Shown here: positions 1,262 to 63,985 of the stretch, piece after piece | Layout: every line of letters starts with the position of its first letter | Numbering within the stretch: position 1 is the first letter of the stretch | NCBI GenBank assembly: GCA_951406725.2 | Contig: OX597816.1 | Coordinates: forward strand, 149,234,001-149,298,000 | Length of the DNA: 64,000 nt | Source: Octopus vulgaris | Lineage: Eukaryota | Reading direction: 5' to 3' | Position numbers and translations under genes: made by a program | The notes under the pieces: model-generated | What the model saw: the letters and a program-made list of their open reading frames with translations, nothing else | What the model was told of the DNA's origin: nothing | Database searches by the model: none

Positions 1262-1345
1262 CTAAATTCTCCTGGACTTAATTGTAGAGAAACAATGGCA
1301 CGCGTAACGCTTAATGTAACGCTCTGGCAGAAGGCTATCAAAGCT
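1262..1345 (-). CDS. Probable terminal coding exon of THAP protein A (SFDSLLPERYIKRYACHCFSTIKSRRI*)
   Basis: Strong acceptor ttcttctttccacatctag|AGC, in phase 0 with the 1804 donor; stop TAG at 1264-1262; minus-strand AATAAA near 813-818. Confidence 0.6.
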   Translation of the reverse strand, partial: SFDSLLPERYIKRYACHCFSTIKSRRI

Positions 1346-1803
1346 CTAGATGTGGAAAGAAGAAATTGAGATTTAAAGTAACTGCTGCTAGTATGTTAGC
1401 TACTTTCCTTTCTCAATCAATTTCTTTCCATTCGTTTATTCAGTCACCCACTCCTCCACTTTATCACAAATTAACAACACAATATCTGCTATTATTCTTG
1501 GCGGTTCCTTTAATGACACTAATTTTATCGACCCCCAAAAGAGATGAAAGGTTAAAAGTTGATCACTGCGATAATATATTTCAAGTGCTATTGTTTGCAT
1601 CAAAACTGACATTGTTAACTTGAAAAGTAGTTATCTTAATTATACTATTGTTACTAGCAACAGCAATAAGAGTTTCTAACCCATCCTATAAAGAGGATGC
1701 AAGAGTTAATGGTGTTTGCCTTTTAAATGATTCAAAGAGAATGTGTGTAAAAGAAAACAGCAATATTTAAAAGGTGTTCACAAAAAATAAAAGATTTCCT
1801 TAC

Positions 1804-2163
1804 GTCAGTTGGGCTGTTTAGTTTCAGTTTGGTATACCATTTTGGTGTGGGGACATTGCTCGTCTGGAATATTGTTGGTATGGCATTCGGCTTCAGTAAG
1901 ATACGTGGGTTCTGCATAAACTGGAAGTTCTGTTCGAAACAATGAGGTTCAAAATGCAGAGTGCAGATTCGAAATCGGCGCCGTATGCTCTGGTCATCCG
2001 AACAGGCCATGTCGAGGAAGTTCTCTATCTGGCTGAAACTAATGTTCATGTTCTGGGCCCAGATTCGACACATTCCCCGATCTTTGGGGAAGCAGTGTAG
2101 CCTGATATGACGAGGGAGTCGGCCATCATGACTTGAACAACCGAACGCCTTACATTGGGGCAT
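1804..2163 (-). CDS. THAP zinc-finger domain protein A, coding exon 1 (120 codons, phase-0 donor)
   Basis: MPQCKAFGC...LHCFP...W...RICTLHF...LKPNAIPTIF has the complete C2CH THAP signature, the conserved P/W/F residues and an AVPTIF-like box. Donor GAC|gtaagg at 1804/1803; the rest of the listed ORF reads as intron. Confidence 0.92.
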
Positions 2164-3550
2164 TGTGAACCGCTTAAGAATCGGATAAGATTGTTAAATA
2201 GCAGATGTAAGTATTGAATTGAGTTTTAAAATTCTATAAAATATAGTTTTAATTATTTAGTTTAAGGAGAAAGAAGAGAAACGAACGAGGAAGAGTGTTT
2301 ACAATCATATTCGTTTTTATAAATGGGTGAGTAATAGCAACAGTATTACCCTGGAACTACAGCAGCAAATAGAAATGGGGAAATGTGTGTATGAGACATA
2401 CGATATTATTTTTGAAAAAAATTAAAAAGGAATTTTCCTTTATACTAACAAACTAAACAAAAACAAAACAAGAAAGGTAAAACGTAGTTAATACTGTTTG
2501 TAGACGCTTAGATTAGCTACGGAAGAAAACAGAATGAATAATTTATATATATAGCTAAGCTAGCTTGCCGTGGGTGATTTTTCTTTCAATACAGTCACAA
2601 TGTAGGCAAGCCTTTCTCTGGCTGTATTCACGGCCACCATGACATGAAAACACACACTTGATTGTAAATTCTAACAGTTATTATTATTTTGCATGGAGAA
2701 ATGCATATTTGTTTTAGAAATAGAAGGGTGATATGCAGTTAAGGGAGAGAGACTAATACTAAATATTCGTAATCAGCCTTAGTCGCTCGGGGTGAACTTA
2801 GTCAGCAGTAGTCAGCCAGTTCTGTTCACAGTTGCTGTAACTGAATGGGTGAGTGGATGCTTTCTACCTTAGTATAAGGGAGCCGACAGAGCAGCATAAA
2901 TTGTGTGTGTGTGTGTGTAATCTGGCTTTGTGGATAAAATATAAGTGGGTGAGTGAATAAACGAGCAGAGAATAGAACGAATTGAATAGAGAAATAGCAG
3001 AAGATAATTTAACTCTTAATTTCATCTTTCCATATAAAAATTAAATTTGAAAAAAAGTGGGGTGATGTTTTATTTTATTTATAGCTGATTTTTGTCAGCA
3101 GAATCATCACGGACTAAACGGAAACCAAGCGTATGTATCTAAAAAAATATTTTACAAGAGGAAAACATACAGTAATGGATAGTAAGTATTATTTCGTAGG
3201 CATTATTAAGCCTAATATTTAATAATGATAATGATAATAAATCACGTTTTCCCTATAAGCAAGAACATTTCAACAAACTTACTCCTCCTCCCACCTCAAT
3301 CTATAAATTCCAGTCTATAGATTCGTGGGTGAACCGAGAGATTTCAAATAGATGGGGAGGAGGAAGAAAAAAAGATTCTTCCGCCGTGCATTAACATAAT
3401 CTAGGCTGGGTGAAGGTGATACACAAAAGCCATTCAGTTATGAAAAGCTGATCGATGAAATAAATCAATTACTGAGAACAGATATACATTATGTATGAGA
3501 GAGTGTGTATGTGTGTGTGAACGCGTGCGCGCATTAAAATCCCCCATTTA
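2164..3550 (-). promoter_or_regulatory. CpG-retaining promoter-like / 5' region upstream of THAP gene A
   Basis: CG dinucleotides are visibly frequent at about 900-3550 and nearly absent from about 3.6-24.8 kb, consistent with an unmethylated 5' region (judged by eye). Confidence 0.5.
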
Positions 3551-13520: not shown

Positions 13521-13734
13521 TGATATATATATGTGTATATATATATATATTTAAATATATATATATATATGTGTATATATATATATATTTAAATATATAT
13601 ATATATGTGTATATATATATATATTTAAATATATATATATATGTGTATATATATATATATTTAATATATATATATATATGTGTATATATATATATATTTA
13701 AATATATATATATATATGTGTATATATATATATT

Positions 13735-13804
<70 letters not shown>

Positions 13805-13808
13805 TTAA

Positions 13809-13875
<67 letters not shown>
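13521..13875. repeat. (TA)n microsatellite with a higher-order unit of about 36-40 bp, punctuated by gtgt and tttaaa
   Basis: Directly visible; it explains the spurious IYIY ORF. Confidence 0.95.
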
Positions 13876-24617: not shown

Positions 24618-24675
24618 TATTTCCTTATTTACTAGCTAAAGGCTTTCAAGCCTTTAGCTAGTATATAAGGAAATA
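24618..24675. repeat. Near-perfect palindrome: 28-bp arms, 1 mismatch, 2-nt loop
   Basis: tatttccttatttactagctaaaggctt-tc-aagcctttagctagtatataaggaaata. Confidence 0.95.
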
Positions 24676-25354: not shown

Positions 25355-26314
25355 TCATACCGATGTTTCTTTAAAGTGTCTTTTCTGCATGACCCTTTTT
25401 AAATTCCTTCGCGGTAAGGTAGCCACAGCACCTGTTGATTCTCTGTGTCCTTTGTGCGGGGAATGTGGTAGCTTTTTTAGTTCTCTCCCCAGAAGAGAGA
25501 CACTGCTGTGACGTCTGTAATTGCTATCATTTGCTTCTTGCTCCAACAGATGTATGCTGTTTCGCCGCTTGTCCACCCATTCATCTATTTCCTTTTCTAA
25601 GTGCGACGTCCTTTTACGATGAAGGGACACCCACTTTTCTAAATCCGTTTCCCTATTTAAAGCACTCTGCTGACATTGACCAACCCATTTCTCTAAATCC
25701 CTCTCCAAGCTAGCAGCATTCTCTCGCTGCTGGATCTCCCATTTTTCAAGGTCTCTATCCAAACTCACTGAAATATCATGATAGGGTACTGGCCATTTAT
25801 GAAGAATTCGTTCTTTGTTCAGTATAGCAGTGGGACGCTTACACATCAATTTTTTAATATTTTTATCCAGACTAGATACTTCTGTGTTCAGACCTTTCCA
25901 TTTATCTACACCTGAATAGTAAGATTGATTAATTTTCGCCCATTTTTCGAGATCACGGTCCAAGCTGGAAGCTACATCATGTAATTGACTAGTTGTCCAC
26001 CTGTTGAGTGGTTTATGATGAGATGGAGTGCTATGTTGGCTAGCCCACCTTTCTAGCTCTGCTAGGTGTGAGGCACTCCCATGATGTCCACTGCTCAGCC
26101 GTTCCATATCACCCTCAAGCAGGGACTCACTGGTCTCCTGTTGTAACGACCAGTTTGGGGTTTCCTCTCCAAAAGCAGAAACGGCATCTTGTTGCTGTTC
26201 CTCCCACAATGCCAAATCTCCCAGGGCAGACGCCGTACCTTGCAGGTCATCTTTCTCCTCCTCTTCCAGAGAAGAGTGGCTACATGGCTGCTCTTGATCC
26301 AGTTTCGGACGGCT
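25355..26314 (-). CDS. Large exon encoding an orphan protein segment with about 18-aa helical repeats (SLxRDLEKW), 319 aa
   Basis: 960-nt open frame in AT-rich DNA. It extends 33 codons upstream of the listed TTG to a phase-0 acceptor gtaactttag|AGC, and ends either at the stop after ETSV or at a phase-0 donor TCG|gtatga (25361/25360). Confidence 0.8.
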   Translation of the reverse strand, partial: SRPKLDQEQPCSHSSLEEEEKDDLQGTASALGDLALWEEQQQDAVSAFGEETPNWSLQQETSESLLEGDMERLSSGHHGSASHLAELERWASQHSTPSHHKPLNRWTTSQLHDVASSLDRDLEKWAKINQSYYSGVDKWKGLNTEVSSLDKNIKKLMCKRPTAILNKERILHKWPVPYHDISVSLDRDLEKWEIQQRENAASLERDLEKWVGQCQQSALNRETDLEKWVSLHRKRTSHLEKEIDEWVDKRRNSIHLLEQEANDSNYRRHSSVSLLGRELKKLPHSPHKGHRESTGAVATLPRRNLKRVMQKRHFKETSV

Positions 26315-35352: not shown

Positions 35353-35713
35353 CTGGAGAAACAAAGTTTTCTTTAAGAGTCAGCAATCAGGTTGAATGCA
35401 GCTTTCTACTTGCATCAATGAAAATCTTGCAAATCATGAATTAGGTATGTACAATTTCAAATATACTTGCTATTGAAATCATGGATTTTTAAGTATCTAG
35501 GCTGTCAGAACAAGATATTACAATTCAAATAGGTTTGATCATGATGCACTGATTATCTTCTTACAACTCACCATAACCAATTGTGACAGAAAATGGTACA
35601 CATACGTAACAATTCATGAACTTAATGAATTCAGCAAAAGTTTGAAGAGTCAAATTATTTAATATGAAAATATTTTAAAAGCATGAAATGTTTTAAAGTA
35701 TTACAGAAGTATA

Positions 35714-37415: not shown

Positions 37416-37537
37416 TCTATGCTGGGCTACAGTCTTAATTAGTATGACAATTAGTGAATTATATATAATTAATAGAATTTTGACTCGAAATACTTCAATA
37501 ACGAAGAGGATAATCCATAATTTGTAAATGATGTTAC

Positions 37538-37567
37538 CTGTTGTTGATAGAAAATTATAAAGGGTTT
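37538..37567 (-). CDS. Candidate 30-nt symmetric phase-1 exon (xTLYNFLSTT)
   Basis: ctgctag|AAACC...CAACAG|gtaaca; open in phase 1; weak acceptor. Confidence 0.25.
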
Positions 37568-38691: not shown

Positions 38692-39133
38692 CTTTTTGGT
38701 TCGGCGTCTGAAAATTGAATCCGTATCTAGCTTGGAAGCGCTCATACCAATTATTACGGAAGCAAAATTCATTGTAACCAAGGCTGTGTGCTACTTCAAC
38801 AGCTTTTCGCTTGATTTTGGTGGCATTTAATTGTACTCCTTGACGACGAAGCTGTAAGACCCATTTGTATATGGCCTGTTCGACATCTCTATAAATTGTA
38901 CTTCTAATTCGCTTGCGTTGTGACGAGCCATTGTCTGTGAAATCTTCCAAAATACGCGCGCGGTTTTTCATAATAGTTGATAATGTTGTCGCTGGGATAC
39001 CGAATTCGCGGGCGATAATTTTTTTCTTTTTTGTGCCTTCGTCTACGGCACGTATTATAGCCACTTTTGTCTTGAGGAGCAAACCTTTGCGTTTGCAACC
39101 ATAAGGCTTCGATTTATTGATACCAGAAGTCAT
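38692..39133 (-). CDS. CENP-B/Tigger-type DNA-binding exon (HTH_psq/CENP-B_N + HTH_Tnp_Tc5), 147 codons, phase-1 donor
   Basis: KRKGLLLKTKVAIIRAVDEG...IAREFGIPATTLSTIMKNR and YRDVEQAIYKWV...R.QG..L....IKRKA...A..LG..EF.....W.ERF..RYG; donor AAG|gtgagt; no DDE domain follows. Confidence 0.92.
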
Positions 39134-39759
39134 TTTTTTTAAAGCTGCAGTCTACTTATCGCTTCTCACTCTACTCACTTTTACTACGTTATATTTAGAA
39201 TGAAGTCACACTCACTTCGTTCACTGCCTGCAATGATTGGCCTTAGAGTTAGAGAATTACTACTGAAAGATTTAATGCACTATGTGGCCTCTAGCAGCAC
39301 TTGAGCTCTCTAGTAGTAATCGTCTAAACAAACCAATGTATTGTAGCTGCATAGATTTTAGTTAAATAAACCGGATTCAATGAACTAAATTACTAAAGTT
39401 TTCATATAATAATAACAATAATAAATAACAGAAATACCGGAGGTAGGGGTAAGGATAAAGAGAAGTTATGATAGTATTTAAAGCGCTCGAATTTTGTTAA
39501 ATTGAACGGTGGAATATAAGGAGTTTCCTCATTACTGATTGTGAGTGGATGTGTATTGCGTTGGTCTTACACAATGTCTCGAAAAACAAACAAAAAACGC
39601 TTAAACAATTTCAAAGGAGGTAGGGGACATTGATTAATAGGAAGATTTATCACTATAAATCAAACAACAAAACCTCGATCTCTTTAGAAAGGAATCTTAA
39701 CACTGCATTGATAAAATGTTATAATGGAATTAATTTTAATATATGTATATATGTATATA

Positions 39760-39819
<60 letters not shown>

Positions 39820-40779
39820 CAACACACTGGGGGTAGCATGTGATTCCTTAAATTAGATATAACCTCTTTAAGAGACTGAACTTTACAATAGGGCAAAAAC
39901 TGAGGACCAGAATATGATATCGAAGTACAGATCCAGCAAAGATCTTTTTGTTTTCTTGGTTCTCTTCATACATCTAACAAGATACTTGTTTGAATTTGTT
40001 ATGAAATTCTGGTTTCACACAAACGCTTTATTTAATCAATATCTATGGATATTACATAAAAAGAACACATAGTTCAACCTTATTACAAATAGCAGCCAAA
40101 TGTCAAACCACATATACACTCTACAGTCCCTCAAAACGAGGATGAGACTGGTCAGGCCTTACTTGCCTTTCAGCTTTAAGTCTACTCGCTTTTAAAGACG
40201 AATTAGGGTTGAACAACAAACAAATTTTTTTTTACAATACATCAATTTTGTTTTCAGTCATTGGACTGCGGCCATGCTGTGGAACAGCCTCAACGGGTTT
40301 AGCCGAACAAATCGACCCCAGTACTTGTTTTTTAAAGTTTAGTACTTATTCTGTCGTTTCCTTTTGCCGAATTGCTACATTACAGAGGTAAAGAAACCAA
40401 CACCGGTTTTCAAGCAGTGATGGAGGACAAACACATTATATATGAAATATAACAAAACGAAGACCCACAAAATTGTATAATGTGACCTTTCATACTGAAT
40501 ATGTTAATTGAACTACGAAATATATTTATGAATTATTTCAGAATAGTTTCAAGTTAATGCTTCAAATTACCTCCCCTGTACTACGATACTATTTCACATT
40601 TCTTTCTAACTCCACGCGCTCCAAAGGACAAATAATTATAAAACTTTTGTGACAGCTACACCTACCACCGTCCCATGGACTTTCATAAGTAAGCTAAGAG
40701 ATAAATTTACTATAATTTAATTTTACTTTAAGCCGATTCTAGTACTCCTTTTTTATACGCGATCTTTCATTCATTCGTT

Positions 40780-42330
40780 TATAAAATACAAGCTTCTCTG
40801 TTACATGTCGGTCCGTTAACATTAATTTCTTTTATATTTTTTAAAAAGTAAGACAGACGGTACCCATAATTATTCAGAAACCTTCCAAGATTAGATGGAG
40901 AGAAGGCATCCTGAAACCAGAGATAAGACTTAAATGCTTGCAACATAGTGCATGCTGCTAAGGGCATCGAAGTGGGCCACAAAAGGATTTGAATAATGAA
41001 CACAAACAGCTGGAACAAATACTACAAGGCAACCTGCTATTATTTCAGTTCCATCAATTCATAACCCAAAATGATAAAATCCAAGTGTCACAATAAATAA
41101 CACAGCATTCTATCTGATGCTTCAATGGCTACCAATTTGTTGCTCTAATATAAATGAAAGATGTTCACAGCACCTAGGTTTCACAAGCAGTCACTTGCAT
41201 TGTAGAAAAATCACGGAGATCTGTCAAGATTCCAAACATCAAGTTCAAATTCAATTATAATGGTTTGCTACAATAAAACCATTTGCAACTCAGTACTTAT
41301 TAGCATTAAGCACAAAGTATTGGTTAAGGAAGGAAAGTAGGTTCCAATATTTTGCTTTCCTCATGTTGAATGGAATCACAGTGACAAATGTCATAATGAA
41401 CTTCTGTGTGGGACAATAACATAAGATCTTCAGAACCAAGTTGAAATTACAAAACTGCTACCTGATCAGAACAGCATAATTAACAATTATCTTAAAAGTT
41501 TAATTTCAGAAATGTAGACTATTTTCCCTTGATGTACCTGGAAAGGTGGCGGCTCATGCTGCATTCAAGTCCCCTTTCAACTCGGTAATAAATGAAAGTG
41601 CTACAGAAAGCATCAGCAAAGGAACTGGGATGATAGAGGTTCGAAGAAGTTGCAAATTCATAATTTGGAATGAATATACAATGCTTCACAAAGTAACAGA
41701 AGTTTTGGACAGGGCATTGTATAAACAAAAAGATAAAGGGGAAATCCTTGCTTTTATGTTGGAGATTTTAGACAGATACGGGCTGTTGCTTTAGGAGAGA
41801 CAAGAACAGATGAACATTTACTTAAGATCTCATATCTTTGGAGAAATGTAATGAAATTACACTTATCTACCAATTTAAAAGACAATCCATTTGCTTATCA
41901 GTTAATTGGCCAATCTGTAAACAAGTCACTGCAACAATAGAAAATTCAAACCAAATGAAGAGGAAGAATTAATATGGGAACAGTAAGCAAAACACTACCA
42001 TCTGCTCACAAACCAAAAGGAATGTCTACTCAAATCTTTCTGAATAACTATCAGAATCACAGAAAGAGTAATATTAGTTCTAAAGAACAGTTGCAGCTGA
42101 TGGCATCAACACAGTTTCTGCAGTAGCTTCTACTAAGAACCATTGTTACTAATCTTTTGAAATAGTACTTGATATCCAAAAAGAGTTTCTAAATTAACTA
42201 GAAGTTTCAGGAAACCTACTACAAAAATTTAAATTTTTAAATAAGGAAATGGCTATCATGCTCCTTATAACTTGAATTCAGCAGGAACAAAATGTCACTG
42301 GTAAGACTATAACTTTTTGGACATGACAAA
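40780..42330 (+). mobile_element. Decayed Helitron RepHel fragment (PIF1 helicase region)
   Basis: AHAAFKSP...ISKGTGM..V...CKFIIWNEYTMLHK..EVLDRAL, GDFRQI..V, YLWRNVMKLHLSTN and an EFLN.LE.SG-like segment; many frameshifts. Confidence 0.85.
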
Positions 42331-44529
42331 GAGGTATTCATGAGTATGTTTAAGAATCTTGTTTCCTGACCCTGTGGTTTAAGACTCACTTTCACTGCTC
42401 AGCCCTTGAGCAAGTATCTTCTACATAAATAAATTAGAAAACCTTTCAACTCACCCCACTCCCGTATTATTGCAAAATATTCCCAAATACACGTTTGACG
42501 TGAAAAATTAGTATCTTTTATCTCTTATGTATACAATGTCATTTGTAAATTTTCTTTTTCATTAAACACAAATTTTACAACTCTTAACTGATCGGATTGT
42601 GAAAGTTAGGGTTATGTTCATTGAAGATCATATGATCTTCAGTATTTTTACACACACTAACAAAAAATCTGGGTTCATTGATTCTGAGGAACAATACGAT
42701 AAACATTGGATTTTGTTTCTCTATCATAAGCAAGATAAGGACAAATATAAAGGCAAAAGCTATCCAGACCAAATTATTTGACAGGCAATACATCCAAATC
42801 ATCAATTCTCATCCTTAATAGAACAGAAAATAATGAACTTATAAAAATTGATAGACACAATGAAATGGAAATCCATACATTTTTTTTTGTATTGATTCAA
42901 AATATAAAGGCAAAATTTAAATATGTAAATAATGAAATACTTATATTTCATTGTATATACAGCATAAAGCAAGAATTGTAAGTTTCCATCATTCCTAAAT
43001 TAGAAATTATTATTACTAACAAGTTTTATTTAGATGAAATACGAAACATCAAAGAAACACGTCAAGATAATTTATGAATAGAAGTGAAAGACATCACAAA
43101 TATCATCACTACTCGATCACCAAAATGAAAGCAGCTTTAGGCTATGGTTTAAAATTAAAACGACTACATATTTTATGTGAATACTTTAATCTATAGAAGA
43201 ACCCACAAACACTAGTCAAGTTAAGTTTACAGTTGAATTAAATCTCTCACTACATAGAATCATTCGATAATTAACACTCAGATTAGATTGATGATATACG
43301 CAATCCAAAGATTCAATGTTACACATGTAGAGTGAATAAAACACTAGATTTGATTAGGTCAATAGATTATCCACTCTTTTACATTCTGATAGTCATAAAT
43401 AACTTATACTTAACCCCCTTAATGCTCAAATTATTTTCTTCATCCCAAATTTTCCTTCTATAACTTTATAAGAACGAAAAAAAAAAACTTGGATGCGTTG
43501 CCAATATTCATTGAAATGTGTGGTTTTTAGAAGACACTTTAGTCTTATGGTTAATGGCAATGCTTCGGTATTCGTATTAAGAGTGACATTTTAAAAAGCA
43601 ACTGCTTTTAGATATATCTCTAAAATCGTTGGTAAATTAATAATCAATTCTTGTGAACTCAAAAAAAAAAGACCATGGGCATTAATGAGTTAAGCTTGAG
43701 GTTTAAAAACTGCTAGTCAAGTTAAGATAAAAGAGAATTAACTTAGTTGGAGGTGATCCAACGAAGAAACAAACTTAAGCCATTAGCTTCACTTAGAAAC
43801 TCAACCACAATTTAATATAACACTTTTCACCAGTTTCAGAATGACAGTGAGTTAAAAGAAAAATCAATAAATTTCAAACTAAAATTATCATATAATCCAC
43901 AACCTTTCTTATACTGAGCACATACGGTCTCTCCAGATTTAGTAAGCGTGTAAACGTTCACTAGTATATTTGTTCAGTATTGTTTTAACAGTTCTTCTAA
44001 AATAAATTGCATCTATCAGTTTAACAGCTTGTGTACGAGTAAATTAAGAACATTCATCTTTCCAAATATTGAATAAAAGTATCCCATCCTTTTCTATTTA
44101 TATATAACAATCGTTTCTTCAAGTGAAATTTACATACATAGTGATGGTTTGTCACTCTTTTTGATCTTAGAAACATACCATATATTATTGTTTATACAAT
44201 ACCGAAATAGAAAGAACAAGGAATTTGAATGCAGAACGTAAATAATATGGTTAGGAACGGAAAGACAACAGTGATTTTTAAGAAACGATGAAGATACAAA
44301 ACGTGACCATAGACTGATTGTCTAGATTTACTACGTTATATATCTAGCAGCCAGCCTCTAAATTCTCTACACACTACATGACGTCAAACTCGAAGTCCAA
44401 CTCAGGTGTGTTCTCATATTGTTTTTCTTTTTCTTTCTCTCTCTCCAACGTTGATGTTACTCGACTCTTTCTATGAGTGTATTTCTCTTTCATATACTCT
44501 ACGTCTGCTACCACTACCATCACACTTTT

Positions 44530-44990
44530 TGTTTATCTCACGTTCTTAGTCAGGCCCATGAAAACTGTTATCTAGCCAGAAAGGGCTCTTATCAATTATT
44601 CAAACGCAAAATCCACTACAATCAAGACTGCGTTACTTCTACAGTTTAATTTTTGATTTCAGTAGAATTTAGTTGTACTCCCTGACGACGAAGCTGTAGG
44701 ACCCATTTCTAAATGGTCTTTCCGACATCTTTATAAATTGCACCTCTAACCGTCCAACCCATGCCAGCAAGAAAGGACGACGTTAAACGATGATGATGAT
44801 CTCGCTAGTATTGCTATGAGGCATAGTCAGACAAAGTACGAGTGCAATTTTTCATAATGGCTTATGTCATTGCTGGCATACCAAAATATTTTTTGTTTCT
44901 TTTTTTTTTTTTTGGTACCTTCATCTGCAGCACGTATAACAACCATATAAGATTTCGATTTACTAGATGACATTTGCTTTTGACCAAACA
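44530..44990 (-). pseudogene. Pseudogenised duplicate of the CENP-B HTH exon
   Basis: Aligns with 38690-39140 (e.g. ttgtactcc.tgacgacgaagctgta.gacccattt); has indels, a premature stop, an altered donor context and an insertion of about 50 bp of SINE tail at about 44749-44800. Confidence 0.88.
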
Positions 44991-45959
44991 GCTTCAAGAT
45001 AACGTCTGCTTAACGCTTCTTACATTACTCACTTTTTACTACACTAAACAACATCCTTGTAAATGGCCTCAAGTAGCACTCGAGTATACAAAACGAATTA
45101 TTGTAGCTTTTATACATTTAAGAGAACTTCGAAAATGTTTTATGGAAGTTAATGAATGGAAATTGTGAAGAAACTAAAATAGGTTTTAAAAGAAGGAAAT
45201 GTGTTAAGTGGAAGTTGAGTGTTGGCTATTTTGTTAAATTGAATGGTGGAATTACAGAAACTTAACAGCTTTTCGCCCCCTTTGGTGCGTGTATATTACA
45301 ATAATTTACACCATAACTAAAAAATGTAATTTCACAGCAGAAAAACTTAATATATGGATTTATTGTTACATTTGGGGACGGTCATCTTTTGCCAGTAAAC
45401 ACATGCTCTATTTACTTGATCTTCATTTTATTAATATTGAGTGAGAGAGCAGTGCATGCCATCAAAGCGACATTGGGGTAAGCTATATGAAGCCCAGTAC
45501 ACCCATCATGGCTACCTGTCTGATAAGAGCACACCAGGTACATGCATCACAACCATATGTGCATGACCTTCCAGGTGGGGCCCAGTGAGAATTTTCATTA
45601 GGTCAAGTAGCCCATCCTGCTCAAATGGTCCCTGAATAAAGGTTGTTTAAGGATGTTGAATGTAAAACCCATGTTTCCAGAGGTGAATTATTCAAATCCC
45701 AAAGAATTCCTATCAACATGCAACTATGATGCCCCCCCCTCACATTATTTCTGTTTGCAATTAGAGATGCACATATCGTCAGCCACCAAGGGACATGCTC
45801 AACTGGTTTTGGTCAAACAACTGACAAGAAAATCTGTGGTATTGAGCAGAATATTTACTGTAGCCCATCTTTTATACCAAAGCGAAAACATGTACATGAT
45901 AACACTTCCAATCACTTAAAATAAAAAACCATGAGGGCCAGTGCCTGGTACTGCATCAG

Positions 45960-46176
45960 GGCATATATTATTATAATTATCATTATTAAGGCAGTGAGCT
46001 GCCAGAATCATTAGCACGCTAGTCGAAATGCTTGCCGTGTTCTGAGTTCAACTTTGCCTTTCATCCTTTTGGGGTTGATAAATTAAATACCAGTGAAACA
46101 TTTGAGGTCAATGTAATCGACTAGTCCCCTCTCCACAAATTTCAGGTCTTGTGCCTTTAGTAGAAGGGATTATTAG
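45960..46176 (+). mobile_element. Second tRNA-SINE family (ggcagtgagctg...gagttcaa...ctttgcctttcatcctt...attatt tail)
   Basis: Related copies at about 16315-16520 and 16590-16760. Confidence 0.6.
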
Positions 46177-47253
46177 TTTATTTTCCAGAGTTCTCTTGTA
46201 CATTCTGTGAGCTCTTCAATGATTTTCTGTCTCTTGTGTTTCCTCTTCTCTCTGGTTTTATCCTGTCTATACCATTTTGTCTTTTGCTGAAGAGGTCACA
46301 GAATGTGTGACGAACTACTACTACTACTACTGTTGCTGCTAAAGTGAAGATATAATAGTGCACGTGTTTATTGGCAAAAGATGACCATCCTCTAATATAA
46401 CAAAATCTATTTCAACACATGATTTCATATCAACAATTTTGCAAAACATAAACATATTAATAATTTACTACTGCACAAAATAAATAAATAAAAAACTGCT
46501 TCAAAAACATTAGTTTTACCAGTAAAGAATGGAAATAACACTGAAGAAATGAAATGTTATAATGACAGTAATTGTAACCATATATAAACAAAAATATAAT
46601 TTTGATACATGCAAAAAGGCATCTGATTCATGTTGCATAAGAAACTGAACTGCAGTTTGCAGGCCCAAAAACTGAAGACCAGTATGTCTACAGTAGTGTA
46701 TATACTATGAATGGTTTCTCTACCACTAGCACAAGGCCACAAATTAATTAGTGAAATAGATAATCAAATCAACTGCAATACTAAACTAATATTTTATTGG
46801 TAATAAATGAATGAAAAGTGAATCCAATCCTGCTGATAAACAAAACAACCATTTCTGCTGTTCCACAAATACTTACAATATATATATATATATTATAAGT
46901 AGAAGTGCTCTTAAAAAATTAGTATACATAAAAATTATTTTGCTTCTTGTATGCTGGTATGCTCAGTAATATATAACTTTACCAATTATTTACTTCATAA
47001 ATAACCATGAAACCTCCAACCAAAGAACAATAATTTACATGATTGTTCAACTTGCCAAAAATCGCAACCAAATCTCCCTGAAACCACACCTTTATGTCTA
47101 AAAATAGACCAAACCAAATAACCTACTCCATTATACCGTATTGCTAAAAAACAAAGGTTCATCATAACTTGAATGCCTTTCAACACAGGGTATTCTGATT
47201 TTTGTCAGACAGGTAAACAGAAGTTAAATATGTACAACATTCTCTCTCTTTTA

Positions 47254-47291
<38 letters not shown>

Positions 47292-47399
47292 ATCATCATC
47301 GTTTAACGTCCGTTCTCCATGCTAGCATGGGTTGGACGGTTCGACCGGGGATCTGGGAAGCCAGAAAGCTGCACCATATATGTATTTAAATTAATTGTC

Positions 47400-48120
47400 T
47401 CATGACTGGTACAGCCAATTATTGTAGGTGTTCATTCTAGATATTCTGGCTGTTGTCTCTATTCATATGTGGAAGGGCTGCAGAACAGAATTTCTTTGCT
47501 TGCTACTTCTTGGCCCCACCCCATAACTATGCCCTGGAGAATAGTTTTGGATAGGGAATCATGGTAGGATACATGTCCATATCAGATGAGCTTTTGTTGT
47601 TTCACTGTGGTAGGGCATGTCTCTCACCTGCCAACGTATCTGGTAAGTTATTGCCTAACAAAGCTGTTGGCTTTGTGCTTTTTACATAGGGGACAAATAA
47701 CAGCCCTCTAAGCAACCGTACTCAAATGCCTGGATTCTAAATTCTGTGTTAAGCTGTAACTGTTCAGCTTTCAAACCCATGTAAAAATTTCTAAGTCAAG
47801 GAGAATTCCTGCAGTTTGAACTTTGATGTAACTACACTGCTGACAATGTTTAACTTCATCATGGCAGAAAAGAATATACCAAATCATACTTTTTATCTCC
47901 TTTTCTGAGCTGCTGTTCTTAAAATGGATCCAAAGTAAAAGCTGTCTACTGTTTCAAGTTTTGCTTTACACAGTATGTTGGTTGCTGCATTGTAGTTGTG
48001 TCTCTTGACTAGTATTTTACTCAATCCTGGACTAGCTTCCATTCCATATGCTCCAACCTTTTTCCAGTCTAGCGTTAAATTCCTAGAGATCTGTTTCATT
48101 GCCACCCAGCCCCATTAGGT
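47400..48120 (-). mobile_element. RTE-like LINE remnant
   Basis: LETVDSFYFGS.L and downstream segments resembling the RTE ORF C-terminus; degenerate. Confidence 0.55.
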
Positions 48121-49299
48121 TGATATAGTCAACAGAATGCCTCCTTTCCATAATCTTATGACACATGTAGCCAATCAGAATTCTTTAAAATATCACTTGG
48201 AAAAACAGGAATAAGTTTACACTAAGTAGCTAATAAGACAAAGTGTGCAAGGCATCCTATTTTTAAGTGAATTATTTATATATGTATAAATATCCCATCT
48301 ATTAAATTGCTTTTGTTCTCTAAAAATCTTTGTTCACACACATATGAGAGAGGAGCTAATCAAAGTTTTTTTTAGAGAAAAACAATTTAATAATTAGATG
48401 GGATAGATCAAGTACCTTATCAACATGAAATAAATGTTAATCACAAATATCGCTTTATACCTTGATGCATGTGGCTGGGCATGCAATATTTTTTTTATAA
48501 CTCACTGGGTCTGGAGGAAGAGGCCATCTTTTGCTGGCCCTCTGATGCTGTTAACATTCTACTTAAGATATTGCAAGTCAATGACTACAGGAAAGAAATG
48601 AGCAAGGAGATAGAAGTTGACATTTTGGACACAGTAATTGGTATGGAGACTGGATGGAAAGACAATATGGATAATAGTAGGTGAAGAGACAAAGAGTCAG
48701 AAGTACTGGAGTGGAGATGTGAGACTAGTCACCTTTGAGGAGCAGTGGCCACAGTAGTAAAAGTAGAAAAGGCAGAGAGAGGAAGTAGGCATGAGTGAGT
48801 CTATGAATGATTTTATGCTAATCAGCTGGGTGGCCTTTTTCTGTCAGTCGACTAGGTCGTCTGTGTGAATAGCAACAGATGTCCATCTTTGATGAGGGAA
48901 CAATATTCCAATGGGTCTCACCTGAACCTTGCAGAAGGTCAGAAAATGTTGGGGGCTGAAATATTTTCTGGCTCTCCTGAAAAGAAAGGTCAGTCTTTCA
49001 GATATGTCCCTCGTTACATTAAGGATGACTATTTCTCATCGAAAGCCTTCTAAATGAAGTGAAGAGAAGCATTTAGAAATGACCATGAGGGCTCTAGTTG
49101 CATACTGCTCATGTTCAAGGAGGTGACATACAATGACATTTTCTTGATATGAGCAGTGCTTGTGTGTTGCTCCTTTTTTACTGTTGAAAGACACAATTTG
49201 CCATGTTCCAATTGAAAAATGCTTTTGAGGTCTCCTATGTTCATAAAGTTAGTGTATATTTTGATGCAACTGTCTAGATTTCATGTGAATGACATTTTG

Positions 49300-49700
49300 T
49301 TAGGTAAAATTAGGGGAGATGAAAGGTGGTATGCTACAGCGAAGTGGCAGAAGATAAAGGCATGCAAGGCGGACAGAAAAAAGCACTTCAAAGAGATACT
49401 CAAAGCCTCATTGAAAAGCTGTGAGATCAACCCTGACACCTGGGAAATGCAAGTACAAGACCACCCTCCCTGGCAAAGCGGCATCAGCAGAGGTGCCACT
49501 TCCTATGAAGAGAACAGGATTGCAGGGGAACAAAGAAATCTTGAACTGCACAAGTCAGCGTCAACTCTTTGCCTTCAGTCCAAGCAGACCACTACAGTCT
49601 TTTGAGCACGCATTGGACTGAACAGCTGGACACATTATGACCAATCTTCTTCTCCCAGGTGATATCTTTGGTCATCATTAACAACAACAGATTAACATCA
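49300..49700 (+). mobile_element. RTE (BovB/RTE-1-like) LINE 3' end
   Basis: KKHFKEILKASLKSCEINPDTWE...QD...W...I..GA..YEENRI, typical of RTE C-termini. Confidence 0.75.
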
Positions 49701-50490
49701 TACCCACCAGAGGGATTTGTGCATTTAATCATACATAGTCAGGAAGACATAGGATGAGAAGGTGAAGCAAGATCTTTGAATGTGGGTTCTCAGAGGCAAT
49801 GACAAGTGATTGTGACCATTGGGAAATTTGCTGTTCTTGAGAAGACTCATCAAGCTAAGTGAAATCATAGTTGTGGCTGGTGCTGGTGGCACATAATAGC
49901 ATCTGTGCCAATAAAAGGCATTGACTACACTCTCTGAGTGGTCAGCATTAGGAAGGGCATCCAGCTGTAGAAACCAAGCCAAAATAAGACTGGAACCTGA
50001 TGCAGCTCTCTGCCCTACCAGTTGCAATCAAACTGTCTAACCCATATCAGCATGAAAAGCAGACATTAAATGATGATGACAATGAATGATGTACATTTGA
50101 TGACCACAGTTGAATGCTGAAAAGATGCAGAACGTGTTCTATACTGAGAATATTCCACAGTGCAAAAGACTCAATGTCTAAATGGTAAGTTAGTAACAGA
50201 GTTTCACATCCTTGACTTCTAGGGAGATCGAATGAGATCTCTGGTATGGTTACATTAAACTCCATATGAATTGTTACAATAAATTATGACAAAGTTATCA
50301 GATTCACACAACAATATCTTACACAATGCTTTCTAACTCTGTATTTGTAACAACTGAATTATAAAACTATTCAACAACAAAAAAGACTTGAAATCAATAA
50401 CTAATCTCTTACACCATTTTACTTATGAGATACTTTAGAACCACTTGAAAAGATAACATTATGCACTCAAATAGATACATTTATTCTTAC

Positions 50491-50903
50491 CTTGAGCTTT
50501 TCTAACTCGCTTGTCACTAATGCCATGAACAAATCGGAAAGCCTTTGAACAAACTCTAATAAACCTCCCATCAATATTTAAAAAATATTCCCATGTACAA
50601 GTTCGACGTGAAAAGTTAGGATCTTTTCTCTTATGCAAACACTGTCCTTTGCAAGCTTTCTTCTTCATTAAATTAGACAAATATAAATTTTGCAAGTTCC
50701 AACTAGCCAAGTTATGAAAGTTAGTAAATAATGTGTACTTCACATGATCTTCAATATCTTTATAAGAACAAAATATTTGAGGGCACTGACACTGGGTTAC
50801 AATATCATAAACAGTGGTTTGTGTTCCAATATGTTTTTCCATCATCAATTCTTTTGTTTTTGTACAGCACAATTGAGAGGTAGAACAAAGGCAATTAAAT
50901 TTT
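50491..50903 (-). CDS. Cys-rich putative DNA-binding exon resembling the N-terminal region of Sola-type transposases; phase-1 donor
   Basis: CQCPQIFC...F.NF.NL..WNLQNLYL...R.CTWEYFL...IRVCSKAFRFVHGISDKRVR; uninterrupted 137 codons; donor CAAG|gtaaga. The 5' boundary is uncertain (phase-2 acceptor at 50903, or ATG at 50845). Confidence 0.75.
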
Positions 50904-51378
50904 CTTTTAAATTATAAGAAAAAGAAATGCATGCTATTCAGTAGTCCATTTTGTCTATCATGACAAACCATGTGATATTTTAAAGGATTCTGATTGGCTA
51001 TATTTGTCATATGCCTTAAAAAGTAACATGAAAAAGTGGTAAGTAAAAGGGAGATAACTAATAAGGACGACATAAGCCATACAAAGGAAAAAATTGATTT
51101 CTTGCACAAAGAAAAAAAAAACGCAATCAATTCCCTCATTTATAGAGTACAAAATAATGTATTGAAAATATATTATAGGGTAGAAAATAATAGAAAACTG
51201 GTAGAAGGAAGCAAAATGCAAAAGATCAAATCCCAAATCTTTTTCACCACATATATATATATATTTTTTTTATTATTAATACTTGGCAGAGGTTACAGTG
51301 ACTCAAAGCTGCAAGCTTTGCGCATCAGCCCTTGAGATACTCTAACTTTTGCTGATAATTAAGACACACACACACACA

Positions 51379-51410
<32 letters not shown>

Positions 51411-51533
51411 CACACACACACATTTATATTTTGAGTTCTATTTTTCTGTTTGCACCACTAAGCCTATACAATGGGGACACACATGCCAAAGCTCAAGATC
51501 TTTAGTGAGACACCACTTTATGTATGAATGTAC

Positions 51534-51586
51534 CTGATGTAACCCAGACTGCAAGATTGATGCAACATAATATGATGTCCAGCATC
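51534..51586 (-). CDS. Candidate upstream exon for the Cys-rich module (DAGHHIMLHQSCSLGYIR), phase 0 to phase 2
   Basis: ggatag|GAT...CAG|gtacat; the end phase matches the 50903 acceptor. Confidence 0.25.
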
Positions 51587-54500
51587 CTATCCATAAAGGA
51601 CAGTCGTAGAATGGGTCAAAACGGTTGTTATACAAAATAGTTATACCAATTCCATGTGTCGTTTCCATCAATTATTATACACACACACACACACGTGTAT
51701 GCTACATTAAATGAGCATGTAGTTAAGATCCTGTTACATTTAATTTTTGTAGGTGGTATAAATAGGAAGAGGTTTCCTTAGCTCAAATATACAACAATAA
51801 CCTACTAATAAGTAATAATTTTTAAACTAGAAAGAACAAAAGATTTGAATGCATCAAAACAACGTGAATAATTTGATAAATGGGGTGGTATGACAGAAAC
51901 TAATAAAATTTACTAAAATGAGTTCAAAACTTAGTTACATAATACAAATGAGGGCCACTTAACTACAAAGATGATAAACCACTACACAACCAAGATCAGG
52001 GCAGCTCATGGGCTTCAATAATCATCTGCAAAAATAGGCCTTTGAAATCCTTGCCTATCAGTACTTTCAAATTGGGAGAACAGTTAATTTTCCAATGTCC
52101 TGTGGAGAATAGATTATTAGCTGTATGGAGACTAGCTTACATTTTTGTACTTTGATATAAACTTATATAATCTCCTCCACAATTAACACATTATTCTCTT
52201 TGATCTCCTTTGGCTCACTCTGAATTTTGACCAATCTCACCACTAATTTGAACAACCATGAAGCACAGCCACTTCAGCTAGATAGGCATTTCTAAAGGAA
52301 TTACTAACCTCCTACACCCTCTTAGTTCAGGCTCATTTTCTTCCTTCTTCCTTTTTATTATCCATCATGGTTTCTCATGTTTAAACTCCTCTCTAGTGTC
52401 ATAAGATGAAAGGGTAGAACTGTGTTGTTCTTCACCCATAGATCCCTTAGATTGTGACCTAGCATGTTGGTGGTACTGAGAATGAGGCAACAAAGTTATT
52501 CTACTCTGGCTATCCTAACAGATTGTTGTCGTTGTCGTCATCATCATCCTCATATTTAATGCCTGCTTTTCATAATAGCATGGGTTGGACAGTTTGACAG
52601 GATCTAACAAGCTACAGGGCTTCATCAGTCTCCAATGTTGGTTTCTCAGCAGTGAGTTCTTTGGAAAACCCCTTCCAAAATGGCTAATGTTGCTTTAATA
52701 TAGAAAATTCCCATATCACATGATAATTTTACTCTGACATGATGATGCCTCCTACAACCGCAGAGTGATACAATCTTGAGAAAGGTATTATCACAGGATG
52801 TAACATGTTAGTGATCCTTTACAGACTTTCTATTGGCATGATGGTAATGTCAACTGAAGTTCAGCAGCAAGAGCTGCTCACCATTTCTGTTCTGGTGCTT
52901 GGTAGTCAGAAGAGCTTAGGGAAGTTAATGATTTGGGCTCACATGAATTTCAATACAGTCAAGAAATACCATCTATCAGCAAAAAATCAGAGTCTGCAAA
53001 AGGTGTTTGACAGCAGCTTGAAAAGCACATCCATTTGTGAGATCAGCTAAGAATTGGAAGCACAATTAGTCACAATGGACCAAATAACTGGAAAGATCAA
53101 GGCTTGGGTAAGGCACCCTCGCATGGGTTCTTTAGCCCCTTTTTGTATACAAGTTCTCAACAACCACAGTTGATGACTTTGAAAGTAGGGTCAGTATTCC
53201 CCTGCAGAAGTGGTTGAGACTACTGTAGAGTCTGAGCTGCAATACTTTGCAGGGACAAAATAATAAGTTCAGAATATGATATGTTAAACAATATTCAGAA
53301 ATTTAAAGGCAAGTTGAAGATAAATCTTGCTATAAGTGAAAAGATGCTTTGAGTTCAACCTATATTAGATATTTTTTTGGAGGAAGCCATCATCTGTTTG
53401 TGTTCTTTCTCAAGAGTTCTTAAAGTCTGGTTCTAACATGCCTTTGACATGTTTTGCTGCTTTACATAACCATGATGGTCTGCCGTAACCCTATTCTTCC
53501 AAACTTTGTGTATGCGCATAGATACACACACTGACATCTATATCTATAGCTTACTTTACTATCAGTTATAACTGAATAAGATCTGGTAGTTTGTACTATG
53601 CATTTATTTATATTAGGTGCTTATGTCATCAAGAGCAGACATGACACTCACCTGGCCTGGCAGAACACTGTGGAAGAGGAGGATGCACCATCAGCCAACC
53701 AGTATTCGATTTCAGTTAAGAAAACATACATCATCATCACTTAACATTCACTTTCCTATGCTAGCATGTATCAGACAGAATTTGTGAGACAGATTTTCTA
53801 TACCCAGATAACCTTCCTCCGGCCAACCATCACTTGTTTCCAAACAAGCCAACATTTCCTCATGGCCAGACATGTTTTTCACAGAAGACTGGAAATGAAT
53901 ATTGTTTGCATGAAGGCAATGTTTGTTTAGAACCATGATGCTTAGACAAAGGCACACACAAACACATATGTATGACGAGTTTCTTTCAATTTCATTCTAC
54001 CAAATCTACTCACAAGATTTTGGTTGAGCTGGGGCTATAGCAGAAAACACAAGTTGAGAACACATGGTTGAGAAGCAAGGTTCTTCAACATGCAGCTATG
54101 CTACACCTTATGTACATATTGTCATTGCTTAATGTCATTTTTCCATGCTGGCATGAAGCATGAATTGGACTGTTTGACAGAAGCCAATAAGCCAGAGGAC
54201 TGTAATAATCTCCAATACCTACTTAGGCCAGGTTTGTATGACTGCATGCCCTTCTTAATGCCAACTACTTCAAAGAATGTACAGGGTACATGGAGCTGGT
54301 ACAAAGTGAGGTCACCAAGTAACTTGTAAGGCAAGATCTCTCAATTGAGGTGGGCATAGTACTGAAGGAGGTGGTTATATGATGATGAGATGTTAAAATA
54401 TGATAGAGGGACAGAAACAGGTGTCTTGCAGTACAGGAGACACTAGACTATTTCAGTTAAAAAGGAGAGCAAATGGTGAAGAGGTGTCAGGATGTGCCTT

Positions 54501-55379: not shown

Positions 55380-55760
55380 GTCAATAGAGGTAGCCTCATC
55401 AAGACAATGGAAACAGTTGTCAAGTCCAAGATTGAGAGGGTAGTTTGGAAGAGGCAGTACATATACCACCAAGACTGATTCTCCTTACACAACCAGCATG
55501 AACCAGGAGTGGATGGCCAAACATTTTCATAATCAAGTTATCTCTAACATTTGGTGTCCGAGCTCTCCTGATTTAAAACCCCTGGATTACAACATCTGGA
55601 GTGTCAATGAGCAGGAGACCAACAAGCATGCCCTTAATACTAAGGACTTGTGGAGGTTTGCTGTTAGGGACATAATGGCCAACATGAATAAGGATCACCA
55701 GTTCAACACAGTCATTTCAGAAGCAGTATTGAGGCACTAATCAAGGTTGGTGGCAGTTTT
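55380..55760 (+). mobile_element. Tc1/mariner (DD37D/maT-like) transposase C-terminal remnant
   Basis: YIYHQD...QEWM...WCPSSPDLKPLDYNIWS matches the WPPxSPDLNPLDYxIW motif. Confidence 0.85.
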
Positions 55761-57005: not shown

Positions 57006-57043
<38 letters not shown>

Positions 57044-61312: not shown

Positions 61313-61490
61313 TTAACCCTTTAAGCATTTAAACTGGCCATATCCTGTTAAAATATTCTACTTGTTCTAGCCTTTCACACCTACCCTATAATGTCATTCC
61401 AAAAATAAATATTCACATCATCAAAAGTTACAAGATAATGCATGATTAATTCAAAACAATGTGAATAAATAAGCAAAACAAAAAGGTTAA
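61313..61490. mobile_element. TTAA-flanked MITE, family 1, inverted copy
   Basis: Reverse complement of 11317-11551 with an internal deletion. Confidence 0.65.
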
Positions 61491-63914
61491 TTTGCTGTCA
61501 AGAGGTGAAAGAACTTCTGGATACACCATATCAAACCGAACTATTAGTTTTGTGTTGCCTCAGCTACCTATTAGACACATAGTGCTGTAGGGTTAATCAA
61601 ACAGAGTGACTTATCAAGTCCAGCACAAAACATTCCAGTATTCAACCAGGTTGTCTGCTTTAATATCACACACAGTATGCTATTTCGCAGATGGTTTATA
61701 TTTATGGTGCAGTAATCTAAAGTAGGTACATTTTGTTGGCATTCTGTCCTGCCTGTATCCATGTATCTAGAGGGTTAAACAGAATTTGAATAGTTTATAG
61801 TTTCATTTTAAGAAGTTTCTAACCACTGTTTTTGGATGTACAATCATATGCACATTGCTCTGATATGTTAATACAGATATAGACATGAGAAGTGGTCCAC
61901 ATAAAATATGACTCATAAGGATGGCTGCACTACTACAAAATTTCGAATTAATCTTTCATTAGGTGTACCATTCAGAAAGTCTTCTTGGCTGCAGGTTACA
62001 CATGACTGTGCTAATACATTCAGTCTGTAAGCTGAATCACTATAGTACATTTTGTCTAACTGACAACACCCATCTCTCTTTATGGTTGAATGATTAGCGA
62101 AATATTCCATCCATGCTAGTTTAGTAATGTAAAATGAATAACAAGGACTGATAAACAGAGTTTAAGAAGTGGATTTTATAGTATCAAGAAAATAAAAGAT
62201 ATATCTTTTCTTGGAGAATGTCAAACTTAGATAGCATTCATAGATGATCTGCTACCTATACTAAAGTGTGTAGAATTAAGTGAACACAATAAAATGCCTG
62301 CAGTTGATTTAAACTCAAGATACATGCAGTCATATGCCAACATCATATGCACTCACCCATTTTACTACTATAAAGGAGAAAGATTTTGCTTAAATTCAAT
62401 GCTCTATTAGAGACCTCTTTCTAAATCATAAATACCTGTGGAACTTATCTCCAGTTTCCACAGGTTTGATCTATATTCTTGGTTACAATGCTTACAAACT
62501 AGTTTTTCCTAGAAGAGAATTAAACTATATCACAAGCCAATGAATCAGTCATCTGTTTCAAAGAATTGTTGTCTACAGTTGTGAATATACCAAATGATAT
62601 CGGGTGCCCACTGAGAGCTAGGAACATAAGAACAAGTGAGAAAGGAAAACTGGACATGGCCAGTCAACATGCTACTAATAGCAGTCAGATCGTCTTCAAA
62701 GTATATTCAACTGTTTTAGAAAAATACACAATATTTAAGAGGAAGATGAATAGTTAGTCATGCCTAAAATTATCTTTGATCTGCTCAGTCAGGACTGATC
62801 TGTAGCCAAACAACGATTCAGTGGACCTAGCCGCTGAAAACCAAGTACCTTGACCATGAATGGTTTACATAGTGCTGGCTGTCTGGTATCATGTTGTGAG
62901 AGATATCCAGTGAACACTCATTATTTTGTTGCAAAGACAATAATTCTCAGGCAAACAAAGTGTATACAGTCGTCCCCTTAAAATGATGCACAAATATAGT
63001 ATTCACTAGAGGGATACAGATAAGTAAACAATCTCTTAGCTTTAACTATCATTGATCAATGTTCAGAAAGGCAACATAAAATAATCATATATACGATCCA
63101 TCGCCTACCAAGTACATACACCAACAATACAGATATATTCTATAACTCAGTACTGAACATTTTCACATTCTATTTATCACACGGTATTGTAAACACACAG
63201 GAAAAGAACATGTGCCTGTTAATCAAAGACTACAAAAGTTCAAGCCAGTAGTTCCTTTGCTAAAATCCACATCGTCAACATTTGACGCTGTCTGTCATCA
63301 ATTATCACTCAGCGACTTCATTTCTCTAATTTTTCGAAAGAAAAGTGTCACTAACCATCATCCTGGCCAAAGACAAAAGAGTTTGTACACACGGAAAGGA
63401 GTTATAATGTTAGAATGTTGTATTAGACAATTTCTATTGAATAGCTCAACAGAAGTTCTATATTATAGCGAAAATTCTGCAAAAATGTTAATCTCGGTGG
63501 CTAAATCTATAAAATCCATGTGATAAAAAGTATAAAAACGTGGAAGGAGAGCTGACCGAATATCAAAGGAAAAGAGAATAATAGTGTGCATGTAATGAAT
63601 GAGAGAGAAAAATAAAAACTCTGAGATAGTTATACTTGTAAAAGAGTAACGGAAACAGAATGGCAACAGATCGAGTGGACAGAGTGAGATAAGATCAAAG
63701 AGGAGGGGTAAATAGCAGAGCGATCGTATTTGAAAGATATTTAGTCTCCGCTACTTCACTAACTTAGCTAACTAGAGTCTGATCCCGTGTACTAGGTACT
63801 TAGTGACTTCTGGAATTGTCATACGGAAATGAGTTAAATTGAAACAAACATTAATGGGTATAAGAAAACGGGAAAAAATCAAACAACAATAACAGCACAG
63901 AAAATTTATCTTAC

Positions 63915-63985
63915 CTGTGGAAGGAAATGCCGCTTCCAGTCTTGTGTTTACTGCTACAACCAAACACAGCACAGAAGTTCACCAT
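63915..63985 (-). CDS. THAP domain protein B, exon 1 (MVNFCAVFGCSSKHKTGSGISFHR), absent from the ORF track
   Basis: ATG at 63985, CxxxGC motif, donor CAG|gtaaga in phase 2, joining exon 2 in frame to complete the THAP domain across a 4.6-kb intron. Confidence 0.92.

Follow-up and report, generated by a model that had tools for sequence, protein, structure and literature searches.

Array of heads and constant region

The Octopus vulgaris DNA analysed here, hereafter the window, is a stretch of 64,000 nucleotides (nt) of contig OX597816.1 (C3:149,234,001-149,298,000, in a genome of 2.8 Gb), which was considered together with 200 kb of flank on each side and another region at a distance of 2 Mb. 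It makes up the central third of a gene with a BTB domain and lies inside a 180 kb minus-strand array of alternative 5′ exons of this gene, termed heads below. The constant region of the gene (exons C1-C3, not to be confused with contig C3) lies 60 kb downstream of the window, with the first BTB exons at 149,173,585-149,171,539, and from C1 up to the most upstream head there is no further BTB exon. Shared exons, or relays, are interspersed among the heads, namely R1 (C3:149,322,249), R2 (window position 34118) and R3 (149,197,473), followed by C1 (149,173,585). The proteins consist of a head, zero to three short relay peptides, a low-complexity linker, the BTB domain and a Ser/Thr-rich tail with two SUMO-type motifs; the best solved relatives of the BTB domain are those of NS1A-binding protein, ZBTB18, SLX4 and BCL6. 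Most heads carry a transposase-type DNA-binding domain that is spliced to this host domain, without a catalytic domain.

By Pfam matches, the heads belong to the THAP, CENP-B/Tc5, FLYWCH, Psq, Brinker, Crypton-derived DUF3504, other helix-turn-helix (HTH) and zinc finger families. The variable exons are thus members of unrelated families, not paralogs of one exon, and only some of them are local duplicates. Of the 80 pre-filtered frames on the minus strand of the interval 149.174-149.355 Mb, 28 matched families of the transposon-type DNA-binding, Crypton-derived or zinc-finger kind (E<=0.005, a cut-off that includes some matches below the curated one), as against 0 of 64 plus-strand frames, which yielded only reverse transcriptase and Pif1 remnants. 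This minus-strand bias of DNA-binding-type frames is far beyond chance, and extends to the whole array what an earlier reading of the window, made from the sequence only, had stated for its intact coding blocks. The same interval contains 10 of the 31 THAP matches of the whole genome, all 10 on the minus strand, and a scan of 47 short minus-strand frames gave one further family match (Psq).

Heads within the window

Three heads of the window are seen in database isoforms. The most upstream is a two-exon THAP head on the minus strand. Its first exon (63985-63915) begins with an ATG at 63985, ends in a phase-2 donor, is preceded by DNA with a CpG observed-to-expected ratio (o/e) of 0.82, and matches the first 24 residues both of isoform P0032 of O. 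bimaculoides (100%) and of P0010 of Argonauta (96%). The second exon (59309-59038) carries the THAP domain (PF05485 at 59341-58997, E 1e-11) and a phase-1 donor to R2, into which P0032 continues; it had been treated as a stand-alone module in the sequence-only reading. The CENP-B double-HTH head (39133-38692, minus strand) combines PF04218 and PF03221 (CENP-B_N and HTH_Tnp_Tc5, match span 39151-38684), also has a phase-1 donor to R2, and is joined to R2 in isoforms P0029 and P0030, with 15 of 15 junction residues matching in the latter. The 3′ THAP head (2163-1804, minus strand; PF05485 at 2193-1735, E 1e-13) has an upstream CpG o/e of 1.23 and a phase-0 donor to R3, which lies 36.5 kb beyond the window start and to which it is joined in isoform P0041. 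The Pfam matches thus bear out the two THAP and the CENP-B double-HTH modules described beforehand. The donors proposed at 59038, 50491, 38692, 34069, 25361 and 1804 are each the last base before a GT, although that at 34069 does not belong to a module, as had been assumed, and is the donor of R2. This shared exon of 50 nt (34118-34069, minus strand) has a phase-1 acceptor, a phase-0 donor and an upstream CpG o/e of 0, and is included in those mapped isoforms that begin with a head located further upstream. Five single-exon translations of the window were absent as such from the protein collection.

Splicing to shared exons

The last constant exon, used as query, matched isoforms of O. bimaculoides LOC106877732 (with names to X36) and of O. 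sinensis LOC115209932, as well as a model from Argonauta. The 33 proteins retrieved, from three Octopus species, have a common C-terminal tail of 500 residues, whereas at the N-terminus they trace back to 23 distinct heads; the number of heads is at least 23, since the largest protein cluster has 32 members, 17 of which are missing from the retrieved set. The acceptor phases of R1, R2, R3 and C1 are 0, 1, 0 and 0, respectively, and each of the 20 single-exon heads tested is spliced in phase to whichever shared exon comes next downstream (R1 4, R2 4, R3 7, C1 5), with 13-15 of 15 junction residues matching the isoforms. The 21st head examined is the two-exon THAP, to which the nearest-relay phase test is inapplicable. 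In-phase heads are spliced 1-62 codons ahead of their own intronic stop.

Further evidence is provided by contigs from four sequencing runs of four studies, of which the RNA type is a guess, none being recorded as RNA (14 of 20 runs were guessed to be RNA). Joints to C1 were read on a nearly repeat-free stretch. Donor 149,174,208 is joined to the C1 acceptor in 4/4 runs and donors 149,176,248, 149,182,181 and 149,182,908 in 2/4 runs each, all with GT-AG ends, and R3 is joined to the same acceptor in 3/4 runs. Two of the four heads so joined are outside the mapped isoforms, and one of these two corresponds to XP_014782214. Contigs of the CENP-B head end at 38688 in 4/4 runs, that is, at the first difference between the intron and R2, which have four letters in common, and two of these contigs carry 24-25 unplaced letters past this point. 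About C3:149,174,772 (L041 1372, 1413), in the intron behind a zinc-finger head, the contigs of 4/4 runs have an 11-nt insertion relative to the assembly, which is either an allele or an assembly slip.

The sequence-only reading had viewed the modules as interchangeable N-terminal exons on shared downstream exons, and had suggested a search for different modules joined to the same exon. The idea is supported by this check, although the tiers of relays formed no part of it: three modules of the window do so in the isoforms and four other heads are joined to C1 in the contigs, the shared part being the BTB constant region outside the window. A private terminal exon for each module, named there as the contrary outcome, was not borne out for the heads tested, as four heads join C1 and 20/20 join in phase.

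One of the relays may itself derive from a head. Three half-THAP heads (149,214,847; 149,213,329; 149,211,094) break off immediately ahead of zinc ligand four of the THAP domain, and the first residue of R3 (149,197,473-149,197,378) is a histidine that supplies this last ligand. An intact THAP paralog at 149,178,040 has both halves in one frame. Because the half-THAP heads lack the histidine and the paralog is unsplit, R3 probably originated as the second half of a THAP gene and later became a relay. R3 is carried as a linker by all upstream isoforms too.

Probable promoters

In the 400 nt before the ATG, CpG o/e is >=0.7 in 28 of 32 heads versus 16% of 2121 background windows (p 3e-15), with a median of 1.02 versus 0.21, and it ranges from 0 to 0.44 before R1, R2, R3 and C1. 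Clear lows are confined to the Psq exon, an internal exon in the isoforms, and the Cys-rich block described below, two more heads having values of 0.67 and 0.69. Annotated cDNA starts are colinear with the head's own upstream DNA in 6/6 comparable isoforms, as judged by eye, with no common leader; these starts stem from the supplement of PMC10027918, in which one begins inside the coding region and three further rows are not comparable. Likewise, no common leader was found in the complete list of loose contig ends at the C1 stretch. A CCAAT-type motif occurs at 6/32 heads and a YY1-like motif at 9/32, versus 16/419 each, the motifs having been chosen after viewing the DNA. No single shared promoter word was found, the best 7-mer being present in 13/32 heads. 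The CpG-rich upstream DNA and the private 5′ untranslated regions suggest that transcription probably starts at a separate promoter for each head.

Candidate heads and dead duplicates

Two more blocks of the window fit the head pattern and are candidates. The Cys-rich block (50845-50491, minus strand) is a single copy, and its best donor, 50491, is of phase 1, the phase required by R2. No significant Pfam match was obtained for 50911-50462 (best E 0.002), and Sola-like, as it had been called, is a presumptive label. There are 132 relatives at E<=0.001, and DUF7869 was found further downstream in 9 of the 35 longer relatives scanned. The block has a CCAAT-type box 154 nt upstream and a CpG o/e of only 0.25. 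It is partly covered by contigs in 2/4 runs, with no joint among those listed; no splice was observed at donor 50491, and the block is absent from the isoforms retrieved.

A dead duplicate of this block (42717-42474, minus strand), missed in the sequence-only reading, has 70% nucleotide identity to 50583-50826 and contains stops and a frameshift. Next to it lies the dead duplicate of the CENP-B head (44972-44190, minus strand), with 68% nucleotide identity to 38303-38908, stops and a small insertion, which confirms the dead copy noticed beforehand; its stop-ridden stretch is at about 44190-44950. The Cys-rich and CENP-B pair was evidently duplicated in tandem, with subsequent decay of one copy of each. 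That the Cys-rich block stays intact while its duplicate decayed hints that the surviving copy has been kept.

The 319-codon open block (26314-25361, minus strand) contains short acidic Trp-containing repeats and is a single copy in the genome. No Pfam or Atlas family was assigned to it, no longer homolog was found among 5783 candidates and its exact sequence is absent from the protein collection; one relative is identical at 268/285 positions. Position 26314 is preceded by an AG and 25361 followed by a GT donor; the two are 954 nt apart, hence of phase 0 as R3 requires, and the frame reaches a stop one codon beyond the donor. No joining of donor 25361 to other exons was observed, and the block may serve as a head for R3, as a cassette behind R2 or as a terminal exon. 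If left unspliced, its end (25358-25369) reads E-T-S-V-stop, which we take to resemble a class I PDZ-binding end. Some 700 nt past the block, a 28-nt near-perfect hairpin (24618-24675) is 96% complementary with a 2-nt loop.

Conservation, possible capture and turnover

The core of the 5′ THAP in the window is identical at 86/87 positions in O. bimaculoides and 84/87 in Argonauta, and the linker following it at 25/27 and 12/27, respectively. Identity across species is 146/147 for the CENP-B head, and 83/90 residues of the 3′ THAP head are identical in O. bimaculoides. Apart from its dead duplicate, the next genome match of the CENP-B head is at 33%.

The sequence-only reading reported no visible terminal inverted repeats (TIRs). 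This is generally the case, with the exception of one 21-nt inverted pair around the 3′ THAP head (1432-1452/2944-2964; 20/21 complementary). Its score is 18, and as scores of >=16 occur at 16/197 random sites, the pair might be what remains of a terminal repeat, or might be due to chance. Flanking inverted repeats were rejected as a general TIR or pairing signal, with scores of >=16 at 4/32 heads versus the above frequency at random sites. Outside the window, two candidate HTH heads are still flanked by inverted repeats, of 83 and 41 nt. A minus-strand Tc1-type HTH frame with in-phase GT donors (L023:5891-6523, C3:149,324,394), situated within 83-nt inverted repeats 2 kb upstream of R1, may be either a recent insertion or a capture that is still under way.

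The THAP at the beginning of isoforms X4 and X7 of O. bimaculoides (P0044) has 23 dispersed family matches in the present genome and none at the locus. These matches are 57-84% identical, and 10 of them contain stops. The X4/X7 THAP is either a species-specific capture or an annotation chimera, and it is the only THAP or other head for which a transposon donor family was seen.

Related BTB genes and other features

Copies of this BTB are found in tandem at C3:148.96-149.17 Mb (12 copies of the constant region), at 151.27-151.38 Mb (five) and singly on other contigs. Several of these paralogs have DNA-binding frames upstream, and LOC106877745 has one CENP-B and one FLYWCH isoform. In the examined part of 148.96-149.17 Mb, the copies have few heads each (CENP-B, FLYWCH, STPR-like). 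The five paralogous BTB genes on the plus strand of C3:151.23-151.39 Mb are preceded by CG-1, Brinker plus Tc5, CENP-B, STPR and THAP frames, and one frame in this cluster (L045:3479-4654) retains a DDE domain. THAP matches at C24:25.66-25.67, C14:52.07-52.08 and C2:173.12-173.16 Mb lie 7-41 kb upstream of same-strand BTB paralogs, and these sites are probably further genes of the array kind. A cuttlefish model shares C1 and BTB (44% over 659 residues); its N-terminus is weakly Brinker-like, Pfam having detected BTB only.

Two minus-strand frames of the array, PHD/C1-like (L022:6349-6663) and a weak Tc5 HTH (L003:8020-8274), are outside all retrieved isoforms. Within the window, nothing meaningful was found at position 1262, and a repeat search of the whole window was dominated by AT microsatellites. 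An AT-rich array of 353 nt (13523-13875) has a higher-order period of 36 nt. Short open remnants lie on the plus strand at 41504-41791, 49216-49602 and 55444-55737; among such remnants the PIF1 helicase is a Pfam match, and the tail of a long interspersed nuclear element and a mariner-type fragment were judged by look only.

Comparison with known systems

The locus is reminiscent of Drosophila mod(mdg4) and lola, where a single locus with one shared BTB yields many isoforms differing in the DNA-binding domain, at least 30 for mod(mdg4), in which FLYWCH occurs, and at least 20 for lola (PMC11426971). In these genes, however, the BTB domain is N-terminal and the variable exons C-terminal, whereas in the octopus gene the variable part is 5′ and the BTB domain internal. 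The octopus heads also represent six or more unrelated domain families with tiered relays, compared to mainly one family in mod(mdg4) and lola. The TTK-type FxLRWN motif, given as arthropod-specific in the same paper, is absent from the octopus BTB region. Since the order is reversed and the TTK motif absent, the octopus gene is not a member of the mod(mdg4)/lola kind, and looks like an independent arrival at the same logic.

Vertebrate clustered protocadherins and UGT1A are arrays of variable first exons. Together with chelicerate sDscam, also described as such an array (PMC9258826), they resemble the octopus locus in having tandem variable 5′ exons that are spliced to common constant exons, probably via promoter choice. 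Their variable exons all derive from one exon of the host by paralogy, and the encoded domains have adhesion or enzyme functions, in contrast to the unrelated DNA-binding domains of the octopus array, which unlike them also has shared exons interspersed. Capture of a transposase-derived domain by splicing onto a host interaction domain has a parallel in KRABINER (bioRxiv 10.1101/2020.05.07.082677). In KCTD1 isoform b, a Crypton-derived DUF3504 is placed upstream of BTB (PMC3212892), an arrangement matched by three octopus heads. KRABINER and KCTD1b represent a single capture per gene, compared to more than twenty in the octopus acceptor gene.

A transposase origin is described for THAP, CENP-B, Psq and FLYWCH in PMC10027918, and for DUF3504 in PMC3212892. 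The former deals with 'Octopus THAP-BTB and CENPB-BTB transcription factors', and 11 rows of its supplementary Table 1 correspond to LOC106877732. Proteins of the locus are listed there under separate gene names with BTB as a transposon component, whereas we read them as isoforms of one gene; the word 'isoform' occurs 0 times in the main text, and no shared-exon array is described in the portion available. The accessible part of PMC12062965 contains no octopus or mollusc case. No description of the head-array layout was found in the literature covered, which included few subscription papers and no supplements of cephalopod genome papers, and no mention of the gene and protein identifiers of the locus was found in the main texts of papers.

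Interpretation and alternatives

We consider it very likely (probability about 0.85) that the locus is one BTB gene with at least 23 5′ heads, mostly of transposon-type DNA-binding domains, each of which is spliced singly to the shared constant region. Its proteins would act as regulators that bind DNA and that pair by means of the common BTB domain. Transcription would begin just upstream of one head, the donor of which is spliced in phase to the nearest downstream R1, R2, R3 or C1, with relays chained onward to C1-C3. The database isoforms show this splicing step, as do the contigs of probable RNA for four heads and R3 onto C1. Heads further downstream would be skipped, likely because most of them have no strong acceptor; the internal exon at 59309 does have one, and its use would be out of frame for phase-1 donors. 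The resulting protein would comprise the head, up to three relay peptides, linker, BTB and tail, in which the head would set the DNA target and the BTB domain would form homo- and mixed dimers, by analogy with established BTB biology. The array may grow by landing of transposons in the sense direction, provided that a donor behind the domain fits the phase of the next relay, and by local duplication.

Several observations weigh against this reading. The isoforms are products of automated annotation, and the O. vulgaris models may not be independent, because they bear the names of other species' models. The joints rest on contigs of runs guessed to be RNA, and the short side of each joint is 18-29 letters. 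No joint between window exons was present among those listed for contigs over 32500-52400, where repeats dominate, and read-through is common, since contigs cover the DNA between heads continuously. The top-scoring donor is out of phase for 5 of the 11 heads without a mapped isoform. As regards promoters, CpG richness is no proof of head activity, because it is also found at the dead CENP-B copy (0.73) and before C2 (0.9, explained by coding exon C1 directly upstream). The DNA before the Cys-rich block is poor in CpG.

Three other explanations were weighed. The same proteins might arise from one upstream promoter and leader with mutually exclusive exon choice, or by trans-splicing as at mod(mdg4). 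Some heads do have an upstream acceptor or a leader exon, as in P0047 and in the case of the Psq exon at 149,354,295, which is preceded by different first exons, and the contigs are blind to transcript starts and to the difference between cis and trans. The private unspliced 5′ ends of 6/6 comparable cDNAs, the CpG-rich DNA before 28/32 heads and the lack of a leader among the loose ends nevertheless make this explanation improbable, as does the fact that the examined heads and relays all lie on one strand in a spliceable order. Somewhat less probable still is that the splices are real and mostly noise, with transposon debris leaking into a strongly expressed BTB gene so that few isoforms matter. 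This would be compatible with the two candidate heads still between 83- and 41-nt inverted repeats, with the O. bimaculoides head from a family of 23 dispersed copies, 10 of them with stops, and with the lack of a demonstrated function for any isoform. Debris would hardly be expected to remain open, in phase and shared between species (CENP-B 146/147; THAP core 84/87 in Argonauta), nor to be single-copy here next to duplicates that decayed, and in three heads the zinc finger is complete only once the shared R3 has been spliced on.

It is very unlikely that each module is an independent small gene, or that all are chained into one multi-domain protein. Single-exon predictions that end at the head's own stop (P0021, P0048, P0050) are in line with the former, and an older model of 1402 amino acids that chains several heads (P0049) with the latter, but the joints of four heads to C1 bypass the neighbouring heads, and 20/20 heads join in phase 1-62 codons before an intronic stop.

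Significance

Beyond the single BTB gene with alternative heads that we favour, the locus might be a standing capture platform, in which transposons in the correct orientation and phase donate DNA-binding domains to a BTB repressor scaffold. It could then be speculated that it serves as an expandable cephalopod library of regulators directed at transposon ends and at their dispersed relics, its repertoire varied from cell to cell by promoter choice and mixed dimers. We regard this proposal as tentative, and rather doubtful at present. The role would be similar to that of the KRAB zinc fingers of tetrapods, which are regulators aimed at transposons.

Transposase capture can be compared here within one locus, with old conserved heads, elements still between inverted repeats and species-specific gains, and the tiers suggest a plausible route of growth in which what was once a second exon turns into a relay used by several heads, and only insertions of suitable phase can join. 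If the one-gene reading holds, the counting of octopus THAP, CENP-B and Psq 'gene expansions' would change. Given that its variable parts are unrelated transposon-type DNA-binding domains, this one gene would encode dozens of DNA-binding specificities.

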